Of a stretch of DNA of 64,000 bases, positions 21,493 through 26,183 are shown in pieces. This DNA comes from a virus, in the IMG/VR virus record IMGVR_UViG_3300034374_004935, positions 1 through 64,000 of that record; one strand, written 5' to 3'. Positions within the stretch are counted from its first letter, which is position 1, and each line of letters opens with the position of its first letter. The notes under the pieces are model-generated. The model had not been told where the DNA came from, searched no databases, and worked only from the letters and a program-made list of their open reading frames with translations. Made by a program: the position numbers and the translations under genes.

Positions 21493-22008
21493 TTATATAA
21501 AAGGATGAAATACATTAAATACTTCTTTATCGATGGTTTTTCTTTTTCTAGCTATGTATGGGTTTAACATGTAGATTACTCTAACCTCATCTCTAATTTT
21601 TCCTTTAAGCTGATAGATTACTCCTACTTTCATAAGCTTACTAAGTAACTTTAGAAACATAGCCTTAGAACTATAGTTTAAAAACTTCTGTAGTGACTTA
21701 TTGCTATGAGGCTGTGAGCCATTCCACACTATATTTAGAGGCGTTTTAAGATCTGTAGCCATCATAAGCATAGAATTAATCTCTGTACGTGATAACTCAT
21801 TAGATAAATACTTAACTGTTTTAGCATCTAGTACAATATAATCGTCAGAAGTAATGACTACCATCTCTCCTTCTTCTGTTATATTAACTGACATCTTATC
21901 TTTACCAAGTTCTGATGATAATAATTCACCAGTCTCTGCGTTTACATACTTACCCACATCAAACTGTTGTTTCTTAGTACTGCGCTTCTTAATTATTCTG
22001 TTTCCCAT
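21493..22008 (-). CDS. RepL-like winged-helix protein
   Basis: YVNAETGE N-terminus and LxKLMKxGVI...YMLNPYI C-terminus resemble RepL-family proteins, which are known in crAss-like phages. Confidence 0.6.
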   Translation of the reverse strand: MGNRIIKKRSTKKQQFDVGKYVNAETGELLSSELGKDKMSVNITEEGEMVVITSDDYIVLDAKTVKYLSNELSRTEINSMLMMATDLKTPLNIVWNGSQPHSNKSLQKFLNYSSKAMFLKLLSKLMKVGVIYQLKGKIRDEVRVIYMLNPYIARKRKTIDKEVFNVFHPFI

Positions 22009-22597: not shown

Positions 22598-22630
22598 GAG
22601 TGTTAGTTATCTGACACTCTTTTCTCTTTC
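22598..22630 (+). terminator. intrinsic terminator
   Basis: gagtgttag-ttat-ctgacactc followed by tttttctcttt. Confidence 0.7.
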
Positions 22631-22821: not shown

Positions 22822-22883
22822 AGCATTGATGAGCCATAGCGATTTATATTGTTATGGCTCAATTTTATAATTACCTGTAGTAT

Positions 22884-23058: not shown

Positions 23059-23289
23059 ATGACTGTTTTCAATACAATAAAAAAAGCTGAACACTACGTT
23101 GATTATAAAAACAAAAGTAAAGGTGTTCGTAATCATAATTGGTTCAGCGGATATATGTGGCAATATCTTGAGTATAAAATTGATTATGATAATAAACGTG
23201 TCATTAAAATGGGCGGATCTGATGGTTGTGGTTGTGGATGTGATATGTATACTTTTCATTATCGTGAAGTAGTTGGTAGAATTAAATAA
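23059..23289 (+). CDS. hypothetical protein (likely start MTVFNT)
   Basis: ORF track 23023..23289; contains GCGCGC motif. Confidence 0.55.
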   Translation: MTVFNTIKKAEHYVDYKNKSKGVRNHNWFSGYMWQYLEYKIDYDNKRVIKMGGSDGCGCGCDMYTFHYREVVGRIK

Positions 23290-23299
23290 ATTAATAATT

Positions 23300-23416
23300 A
23301 TGAAAAAGATTGTAGTAACACAACAAGAAATTCAAGAGGCTTGCAAAAAGCAAGTCTATCGTGATAAGTCTAAGTACTATCGCAAGAAGAAGCATAAAAA
23401 TGGCAGTACCACATAG
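23300..23416 (+). CDS. 38-aa basic peptide with ArfA-like C-terminal motif (absent from ORF track)
   Basis: MKKIVVTQQEIQEACKKQVYRDKSKYYRKKKHKNGSTT*; the stop codon lies inside the downstream tRNA-like element. Confidence 0.6.
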   Translation: MKKIVVTQQEIQEACKKQVYRDKSKYYRKKKHKNGSTT

Positions 23417-23473
23417 GAATGATAGCTCTTATGATGGGTCTGGAATGTATAGGTTCGAATCCTATTACTGCCA
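23402..23473 (+). tRNA. atypical tRNA-like element (reduced D arm, weak anticodon stem, nominal anticodon ATG)
   Basis: Acceptor GGCAGTA/TACTGCC and T arm ATAGG-TTCGAAT-CCTAT are perfect; D arm only CAT-AGGA-ATG; no encoded CCA. Confidence 0.6.
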
Positions 23474-23479
23474 CTAAAT

Positions 23480-23642
23480 CATTTACTGCTGAATGGTAAA
23501 TGTATAGTACACAAGAATGTTAAGAATTGAATTTCTTGTATCAATAGATCTGTAAATTAAGAAGCACACTCTATACTTATTTAATTAAGAATGATATCGA
23601 CTCCAGATGAGCATGAATTCCTGGATAGTTCTTGTGTACTAT
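23480..23642 (+). ncRNA. putative structured ncRNA closed by a 14-bp inverted repeat
   Basis: atagtacacaagaa (23504-23517) / ttcttgtgtactat (23629-23642) with internal hairpins, preceded by catttac/gtaaatg. Confidence 0.45.
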
Positions 23643-25895: not shown

Positions 25896-25986
25896 AGCCA
25901 AGTAGTTTAACGGTAAAACATATACACAAAAAATGGTAAATAAAGTTTTGTTGTATAAATTTTAGGTTCGAGTCCTAATTTGGCTT
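25896..25986 (+). tRNA. tRNA-like element with expanded anticodon arm
   Basis: Acceptor AGCCAAG/TTTGGCT, T8A9, D arm GTTT-AACGGTA-AAAC, T arm TTAGG-TTCGAGT-CCTAA; anticodon stem TATAC/GTATA encloses 27 nt instead of 7. Confidence 0.7.
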
Positions 25987-26183
25987 CGATATACTTGAAA
26001 GACCATACATTGAATTGAGTCTTTAGTATAACATTTTAATAAGCTATTGCTATTAGCATCGTCAAAAAAATAATAGTAGGCAATTGTATAAGTATGTGTG
26101 AACTTATACTCTTATGGACTTTATAAGTCTGATCTAAAACACACAAAAATCTATATTTATTAATTATTAAAAACTATCCAAAA

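Follow-up and report, generated by a model that had tools for sequence, protein, structure and literature searches.

A phage peptide gene with an ArfA-like motif that ends inside a conserved anticodon-less tRNA-like RNA

Why should a phage gene take its last codons and its stop from a tRNA-like element, and what would become of its message if that element were processed as a tRNA is? The question is raised by a 38-codon open reading frame (ORF) in the first 64,000 nucleotides, here called the window, of the IMG/VR virus record IMGVR_UViG_3300034374_004935. The original prediction, made from the letters of the window, described an ArfA-like peptide whose stop codon RNase P might remove, leaving a stop-less message and placing the peptide under the control of trans-translation. 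The observation as a whole was confirmed by our analysis, and this first reading as a whole was partly supported. The features of the locus are collected in Table 1.

Table 1 Features of the peptide gene, the tRNA-like RNA and the upstream frame, in window coordinates
Feature	Position	Strand	Basis or remark
Upstream 76-codon ORF	23059..23289	+	ORF list; same strand as peptide gene
Peptide gene, 38 codons, basic peptide, DUF7230 family	23300..23416	+	ORF list, Pfam DUF7230
ArfA-like basic motif, codons 21-34 (RDKSKYYRKKKHKN)	23360..23401	+	BLASTP, family profile against ArfA
TAG stop of peptide gene	23414..23416	+	RNA positions 13-15, 5' strand of long hairpin
72-nt anticodon-less tRNA-like RNA gene	23402..23473	+	Discriminator A at 23473
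Acceptor stem, 5' strand	23402..23408	+	Pairs with 23466-23472, 7/7 pairs
Long hairpin: 3 bp, bulged A (23434), 7 bp	23409..23437	+	Covariation; replaces D and anticodon arms
8-nt loop AUGAUAGC	23419..23426	+	Identical in 20/21 distinct variants
11-nt joining strand, invariant UGGA at 23441-23444	23438..23448	+	Alignment of 21 variants
T arm, 5-bp stem, loop UUCGAAU	23449..23465	+	Rfam tRNA model, fold, alignment

The locus and its peptide gene

The source of the window looks like a marine crAss-like phage. The full record is 83.6 kb long, is rated 64% complete and has a G+C content of 30–35%; it carries giant ORFs of 3447 and 1489 codons and a DNA polymerase ~40% identical to the polymerases of gut crAss-like phages, and complete relatives with the same 72-nt RNA measure ~115 kb. 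In a collection of isolated phages we found no close relative of the region, and the 72-nt RNA was absent from all of them; a tblastn search of isolated phages with two peptides, in which the low-complexity filter may mask matches, also returned no relative. The peptide ORF and the RNA lie just beyond a strand switch near position 22000, among small plus-strand genes. The 76-codon ORF upstream of them has no match in Pfam or PHROG. Terminator-like hairpins were located at 22598–22619 and 22830–22861, the latter being the last before the RNA. Because no terminator-like hairpin separates the 76-codon ORF, the peptide gene and the RNA, these three are likely to be co-transcribed; the promoter scan covered promoters other than those of the Bacteroidota type. 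Parts of the stretch are contained, as assembled contigs, in one RNA run and in three runs of unknown kind. A contig from an RNA library covers both ends of the element in a different flanking context and, being assembled, is mute on processing.

The peptide gene opens with the ATG at 23300, and its frame ends in KKKHKNGSTT before the TAG. Its conserved core consists of codons 1–34 (23300–23401), while codons 35–38 and the stop come from the RNA gene. Against Pfam, the peptide matched DUF7230 (PF23876) over profile positions 12–35 of 42 with an E-value of 7.7e-6 and 26.4 bits, compared with a cut-off of 27, and the same family was recovered in a six-frame search at 25.5 bits (gathering score 27 bits). 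Six of the seven close homologues, among them the near-identical P0001, carry a precomputed DUF7230 label, and 106 of the 144 relatives that we collected match the family at E≤1. The subfamily of the window has KSKYY where most DUF7230 members have KKKYT. Two PHROGs match the peptide, and neither has an assigned function. The close homologues P0001–P0007 are conserved up to KKKHK, and the tails beyond this point (NGSTTWE, KSFTDKW, ERLS, GRSL, NKSY, HKSY and NEKEN) are unrelated.

A profile built from 18 relatives retrieved 175 clusters at E≤0.001 from 1.84 billion proteins. Among the 150 of these clusters that were listed, most proteins are 35–80 residues long, with ..V.RNKKKY.RK.KH. as a hallmark close to the C-terminus. 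When viral contigs were scanned, the confirmed loci of the three scans numbered at least 200, 81 and 82, and the contigs ranged from 4 kb to 291 kb. Bacterial genomes contained no homologue that was recognized by two peptide patterns, a result limited by the patterns used. DUF7230 is thus, in the searches made, a large family known from viral and metagenome data only, and in the literature we found no paper that mentions it. Nine distinct sequences of the ORF fused to the RNA allowed a comparison of their variant codons: 11 were synonymous and 6 non-synonymous, with 16.7 of 102 sites being synonymous, and therefore selection acts on the protein. The coordinates and the internal TAG given in the original prediction were exact, and the peptide ORF is a real gene under purifying selection.

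Structure and spread of the tRNA-like RNA

The element that begins at G23402, the first base of codon 35, was expected to have a perfect 7-bp acceptor stem and a T arm, and both were borne out. The 7-bp acceptor stem, together with the 5-bp T stem on which it stacks and a T loop of canonical form, makes up the part that RNase P reads. The D and anticodon arms had been taken to be degenerate, and here the alignment corrected the original prediction, since a covarying 10-bp bulged hairpin replaces both. We collected 23 distinct element sequences and aligned the 21 without insertions, excluding the insertion variants L032 and L051. RNA positions 8–17 pair with positions 26–36 to form the 10 bp of the hairpin, in which 99.5% of cells are paired and four of the ten pairs change on both sides among the 21 variants. 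Over the whole structure 99.8% of cells are paired and all four two-sided changes fall in the hairpin, the invariance of the acceptor and T arms being partly imposed by the search patterns. None of 500 shuffles had a covariation score as high as that of the long-hairpin structure. The two top pairs of the hairpin covary, and the loop is therefore truly 8 nt long. The invariant UGGA of the joining strand is a candidate partner of the T loop.

Two diverged RNAs extend this picture. The RNA of locus L305 scores 62.4 bits with the covariance model and has the same hairpin and loop, with a different acceptor stem and T loop; that of locus L027 scores 25.8 bits and shares the layout, its loop measuring 6 nt and one more small hairpin being present. 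Since the acceptor and T arms of these two RNAs differ yet remain paired, the arms are able to change while their pairing is kept.

ARAGORN reports positions 23402–23474 as tRNA-His(atg), and its mitochondrial mode returns the same His cloverleaf. The Rfam tRNA model (RF00005) gives 25 bits and an E-value of 0.061, below its 29-bit threshold. A tRNA-His(AUG) was rejected because the anticodon-stem pair 25–37 drawn by ARAGORN is broken in 14 of the 21 variants, the base preceding the element is U and not G, and the discriminator is A. We discarded a D-armless decoding tRNA that would read codons with the GAU of its 8-nt loop, since the mitochondrial mode of ARAGORN gives only the His cloverleaf again, the covarying top pairs of the hairpin set the loop at 8 nt, and the L027 RNA has a different, 6-nt loop. 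We also rejected pairing of the loop AUGAUAGC with a target in the window, where its complement occurs only at the loop itself, and an attachment-site copy of the 3' half of a host tRNA, as genomes of 185,579 species contain no exact copy of the 21-nt 3' end of the element. No other Rfam family came close to threshold on the element, and the tmRNA mode of ARAGORN made no call; the element has C3-G70, not G3-U70.

The element shares with a canonical tRNA (RF00005) the 7-bp acceptor stem, the T loop UUCGAAU, the discriminator A and the length of 72 nt. It differs in having no D arm, no anticodon stem-loop and no linker at positions 8–9, and in the 11-nt strand between its hairpin and its T arm. 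As in phage tRNA clusters, it lies among early small genes and adjoins another tRNA-like gene. The available text of a report on tmRNA describes its tRNA-like domain as an acceptor and T-arm half only that is processed like a tRNA (PMC3985003). The element likewise retains only this half; unlike tmRNA, it contains neither a reading frame nor pseudoknots, it carries C3-G70 in place of G3-U70, and its single-stranded joiner lies 3' of the long helix.

With a 25-nt pattern from its 3' end the element was recovered from five viral contigs, with a gapped pattern from 6 of the 18 viral stretches that matched, and with a 21-nt pattern from 35 metagenome stretches; among bacteria and archaea, genomes of 185,579 species gave no match to the 21-nt pattern. 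The 83.6-kb record holds a single copy. Altogether 32 distinct flanking contexts were recognized, which begin to differ precisely where the element starts and ends. RNase P prefers U at position −1, and the element is preceded by U in 29 of the 32 contexts and by A in three. Every one of the 32 has C at position 74, and 10 encode CCA.

These data bear on the simplest alternative, that nothing here is functional and the locus combines a decaying tRNA pseudogene with a chance ORF. The sub-threshold Rfam tRNA score and an anticodon AUG that is odd for tRNA-His would fit such decay. The compensatory changes in the hairpin, the near-invariant loop and the 32 sharp-edged contexts contradict it, as do the large family of the ORF and the purifying selection on it, and we find this explanation hardly credible. 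Nor is the element a leftover RNase P signal, as its intact acceptor and T arms had first been read: with its covariation and its 32 contexts it is, on good support, a conserved structured RNA in its own right, without an Rfam entry.

Resemblance of the peptide to ArfA

The original prediction rested on a short likeness to ArfA. This likeness proved broader than claimed, extending as a motif over ArfA residues 26–47; the curated ArfA models are silent on it. By BLASTP, residues 21–34 of the peptide align with residues 34–47 of Escherichia coli ArfA with 7 of 14 identical. The C-terminal motif of the family, ..V.RNKK.Y.RK.KH.N, corresponds in the family profile to ArfA 26–47 (R..V.KNKK...Y.RK.KH.N). 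When the 144-member family alignment was compared by hhalign, the match spanned ArfA residues 25–47/50 with one 3-residue gap, at a probability of 18% against the single ArfA sequence and 26% against a 21-member ArfA alignment. Asn34, encoded by the final codon before G23402, is aligned with ArfA Asn47 by hhalign.

E. coli ArfA obtains 17.3 bits with the family HMM, a value reached by none of 5000 shuffles of the whole ArfA sequence (best 12.9) and none of 5000 shuffles of ArfA residues 24–50 (best 13.3). Among 177,635 distinct PDB sequences, ArfA ranked first with the family profile (E 0.02) and ArfA chains made up four of the top five matches. In the reverse test with an ArfA HMM, 58 of the 144 members scored above the 99th percentile of their own shuffles; the window's own peptide reached only 2.0 bits with the narrow ArfA HMM.

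A profile search of the peptide against the ArfA family had been suggested as a check, and there the Pfam and NCBIfam ArfA models gave no match. Pfam ArfA (PF03889, cut-off 25.5 bits) did not match the peptide at E≤10 or any of the six frames of the 83.6-kb record, and it was absent among the 25 families listed, of 57, for the 144 relatives; among the 25 NCBIfam matches listed, of 26, there was no ArfA model. Membership of the peptide in the ArfA family is not supported by these sequence comparisons. The silence of the curated models, the 26% from hhalign and the 2.0 bits of the window's own peptide weigh against the ArfA-motif part of the explanation proposed below.

The N-terminal, RF2-activating part of ArfA has no counterpart in the peptide, the alignments beginning at ArfA residue 25 or 26, with ~14 residues before the aligned start in the peptide and 25 in ArfA. 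According to the available portion of a structural study, residues 21–30 of ArfA lie in the A site and residues 31–48 in the mRNA tunnel, and the N-terminal minidomain with Ala18, Leu19, Leu24 and Phe25 opens RF2 (PMC5378476). The same portion describes ArfA as active when truncated at Asn47 and inactive after truncation at Met40, the Asn47 truncation being the shortest active ArfA that it reports (PMC5378476). Given this residue map, as far as that text sets it out, an aligned segment of ArfA 25–47 means that the shared part is the tunnel and A-site segment.

An ArfA-like motif is thus present in the peptide at the level of sequence, and the peptide plausibly works like the ribosome-sensing half of ArfA, which is our prediction for it. 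ArfA (YhdL, PF03889), the RF2-dependent rescue factor of E. coli, is likewise a small basic peptide, and the phage peptide shares with it the ordered motif over ArfA 26–47, the A-site and mRNA-tunnel segment. The phage peptide is about half as long, is phage-borne and has no match to the RF2-opening minidomain at the N-terminus of ArfA. The ArfA message loses its stop by RNA processing, and the phage message potentially does so too; the cutter of the former is RNase III acting at a hairpin, whereas we propose RNase P acting at a tRNA-like RNA for the latter, and most relatives of the phage peptide keep ordinary stops. We know of ArfA-type rescue only as a bacterial housekeeping back-up and, to our knowledge, self-control of this type by a stop-less message is known only with RNase III or terminators.

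Junction of the two genes and its possible origins

Codon 35 (GGC) begins at G23402, the first base of the RNA. The junction AAAAAU/GGCAG is present in nine distinct fused ORF sequences among the 32 RNA contexts, and the remaining contexts have terminators or unrelated genes upstream of the RNA. In L001 and L004, RNA position 14 is G, which still pairs as G-U and turns TAG into TGG, and the frame continues to a TGA at RNA positions 19–21, in the loop. Other relatives have a peptide gene with a stop of its own, ~80 nt to 2 kb upstream or downstream of the RNA and on the same strand. At L062 the ORF retains only the first 15 nt of the RNA (NGSTT and the stop) and is followed by another gene, and a complete copy of the RNA lies 286 nt further on, past this intervening gene.

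The explanation that we propose, and to which we give roughly even prospects of being right, is that two real genes were joined by shuffling, one for a ribosome-binding peptide with an ArfA motif and the other for an RNase P-processed tRNA mimic, and that a stop-less message is a by-product. They are two separate conserved phage genes placed end to end, and they are neighbours throughout this phage group. The peptide, with its conserved core of ~34 residues, would bind the mRNA tunnel of the ribosome; its motif resembles the part of ArfA that occupies the A site and, on the 30S subunit, the vacant mRNA tunnel. The RNA retains the acceptor stem, T arm and discriminator, which form the top half of a tRNA, with the long hairpin in place of the codon-reading half. 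Host tRNA enzymes would excise it from an early transcript, RNase P presumably cutting between U23401 and G23402. In the lineage of the window no spacer is left between the genes, so that the first 15 nt of the RNA encode GSTT and the stop. A shared transcript and the overlap would then allow two outcomes: translation before processing would yield the 38-residue peptide, and processing would yield the mature RNA and a stop-less message ending at Asn34. That a cut at 23401/23402 leaves an in-frame message without a stop had been foreseen in the original prediction and follows from the coordinates; the sequence makes RNase P cutting plausible and control through trans-translation possible.

We take the overlap to be mainly an outcome of gene shuffling that is tolerated, the residues beyond KHK(N) being a dispensable tail. 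Signs of shuffling are the nine fused ORF sequences among 32 contexts, the variable gene order, the differing tails and L062. In addition, the overlap is lineage-specific. No ARAGORN tRNA overlaps or closely follows the peptide gene in any of 142 distinct wider-family genes, a count based on the 195 of 239 loci at which the family ORF could be placed, the other 44 being dropped. A looser scan for tRNA-like folds, which recovered both positive controls, found one overlap (L305) among 141 distinct wider-family genes, the other 140 having stops clear of such folds, 0–31 residues past the motif. The original prediction had named homologues whose stops are normally clear of processing signals as evidence against it; for tRNA-like folds this outcome holds in the wider family, L305 being the exception.

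At L305 the peptide gene is 67% identical to that of the window and extends 61 nt into a diverged copy of the same RNA in a different frame, the first base of the RNA being the third base of the Lys codon of KHK. That a junction has arisen a second time at this point suggests some advantage under selection. With the RNA start again no more than one codon from KHK, a selected design explains it better than an accident does, and this speaks against the shuffling account.

Such a design would make the overlap a selected control device: excision by RNase P would render the peptide message stop-less, the 34-residue product would be tagged through tmRNA and destroyed, and, as for ArfA and BrfA, trans-translation would have to be saturated for the peptide to accumulate. 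Precedents exist, in that arfA is made stop-less via RNase III or early termination, as described in the text available of one report (PMC3989581), and a stop-less message is likewise described for brfA in the corresponding text of another (PMC11633108). The ArfA-like motif itself, with its 17.3 bits and a top PDB match at E 0.02, the retention of the junction in nine distinct ORF sequences and the second junction of L305, in another frame at the same point, favour this alternative. So does the position of the cut: as Asn34 pairs with ArfA Asn47, RNase P would leave exactly the conserved core, cutting directly after the residue that aligns with the end of the shortest active ArfA in the accessible text of PMC5378476. 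The wider family weighs the other way, with no overlapping ARAGORN tRNA and one overlapping tRNA-like fold in 141 genes, and close relatives with the tails ERLS, NKSY, KS and NEKEN have ordinary stops. L062, moreover, retains NGSTT and the stop without the RNA directly behind, and the read-through tails are not hydrophobic degrons, unlike that of ArfA. We therefore rate selection of the overlap as a control device as doubtful.

The neighbourhoods of family genes bear on a further alternative, in which the peptide and the anticodon-less tRNA mimic would act jointly on the ribosome, loosely like SmpB and the tRNA-like domain of tmRNA, with the peptide sensing the empty mRNA tunnel and the RNA occupying the A site. 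All five element-bearing viral records have exactly one peptide gene, and 34 of 47 locus rows with the RNA also have a peptide gene within ~2 kb, despite changes of order. Diverged peptide genes lie beside diverged RNAs, as at L305, where the two overlap, and at L027, where an RNA of the same build lies 6 nt past the stop of the peptide gene. Moreover, other anticodon-less tRNA-like folds end 3–16 nt before the start codon of the peptide gene at L235–L237 and L240. All of this would suit joint action. Conversely, the RNA model matched nothing in four of five peptide-bearing records, one of them rated 97% complete. Family genes often lie in tRNA-rich surroundings, with tRNA calls no further than 1.5 kb away at 13 of 80 loci, a count in which the frame was misread in three of the 80, and at 11 of 142 in the wider sample. 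A tRNA-like fold lies within 150 nt in 11 of 158 wider-family contexts where a local density of 0.176 per kb would lead one to expect ~8, and hence there is no excess over the local tRNA-rich background in these 158 contexts, which exclude the KSKYY subfamily of the window as unmatched by the motif pattern. In tmRNA the G3-U70 pair allows charging with alanine; the RNA described here has C3-G70 and no message part. We consider joint action quite improbable.

The proposed explanation, two genes brought together by shuffling, leaves each of them of interest in its own right. The peptides form a large unstudied family, met in our searches in viral and metagenome data only, with the tunnel-binding motif of ArfA, which would be new and suggests that phages tamper with stalled or empty ribosomes. 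The 72-nt RNA illustrates that phage 'tRNA' calls can conceal non-decoding tRNA mimics. Removal of a stop codon by tRNA processing, if true, would be a new route to a stop-less message. In its most novel form, which we think rather unlikely as a whole, the finding would mean that phages carry ArfA-like peptides that bind the mRNA tunnel, that in some lineages the excision of a neighbouring tRNA or tRNA mimic acts as a switch for their synthesis, and that the phage thereby reads or exploits the trans-translation load of its host; the partner here would be a new class of anticodon-less tRNA-like RNA, perhaps itself acting on the ribosome.

Relatives of the peptide-RNA junction

Two diverged relatives of the anticodon-less tRNA-like RNA (at L305 and L027, loci on related contigs) retain its layout, in which the acceptor stem is followed by 3 bp, a bulged A and 6–7 bp, and they differ from the window RNA in the acceptor stem, in the T loop (UGCGAAU) and in having one additional small hairpin within the joiner. 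The peptide frame reads through 61 nt of the RNA at L305, and the RNA of L027 starts 6 nt past the peptide stop.

At L062, only the RNA's initial 15 nt remain in the peptide ORF (NGSTT, then the stop codon), and a gene of ~75 codons separates this ORF from a complete RNA copy. This arrangement looks like the outcome of an insertion or recombination at the 5′ end of the RNA. The same intervening gene is also found 5′ of the RNA at L054 and L058. In relatives whose peptide ends in the tail ERLS, the last codons contain the start of a terminator-like hairpin, with the TAG in its loop and a T-run after it; at L034 and L037 the RNA gene begins a few bases 3′ of that T-run.

Coordinates of features at the related loci and in the window
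Feature	Locus or protein	Position	Remarks
Diverged RNA relative	L305	1299-1380
Diverged RNA relative	L027	3205-3282
Peptide ORF, gene of ~75 codons, complete RNA copy	L062	1631-2100	in this order
ERLS-tail relative with terminator-like hairpin	L022	3090-3175
ERLS-tail relative with terminator-like hairpin	L034	between 3134 and 3052	minus strand
Anticodon-less tRNA-like fold upstream of DUF7230 gene	L235	1172-1252
Same	L236	1169-1240
Same	L237	1185-1240
Same	L240	1106-1188
Family variant with altered tail	L027	2986-3195
Same	L045	406-549
Same	P0015
Same	P0016
Short hairpin directly 3′ of RNA	window	about 23483-23505
Inverted repeat, after short hairpin	window	about 23506-23518 with 23629-23641	at least 13 bp
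tRNA-like gene no. 2	window	25896-25987	92 nt; Rfam tRNA, 47.3 bits; ARAGORN tRNA-Leu(caa)

Setting and variants of the DUF7230 family

The folds upstream of other DUF7230 genes are 56–83 nt long, with 3′ ends 3–16 nt short of the start codon, and ARAGORN made no calls for any of the four. Their T arms seem to have been translated by gene callers, yielding false N-terminal extensions such as ...RGS.PLSRS in the homologous proteins P0020, P0021 and P0023. On large phage contigs, DUF7230 genes are enclosed by ordinary tRNA gene clusters (L101-L103, on contigs of 274–291 kb, L126, L132, L106, L128 and L138); in one example, the gene comes after Cys, Leu and Leu tRNAs and ahead of Met, Gly and Glu tRNAs.

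In the altered-tail variants, ...KKYHRPS.EK stands in for the basic RK.KH tail and leads into a C-terminal extension. In L027 and P0015 this extension is Cys-rich and, with its two CxxC pairs, resembles a zinc ribbon. The family profile also matched two long proteins, P0022 (715 aa) and P0061 (2358 aa), the latter in six stretches.

Downstream sequence and a second tRNA-like gene

Beyond the RNA, the window's inverted repeat flanks ~110 nt containing inner hairpins, and the first part of 23480-23642 is common to L040 and L048. In the Rfam alignment of the second tRNA-like gene, a stretch of 27 nt takes the place of the 7-nt anticodon loop, and the gene's acceptor, D and T arms are canonical-looking. 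Because of this replacement among otherwise canonical-looking arms, the phage may carry two non-decoding tRNA mimics.
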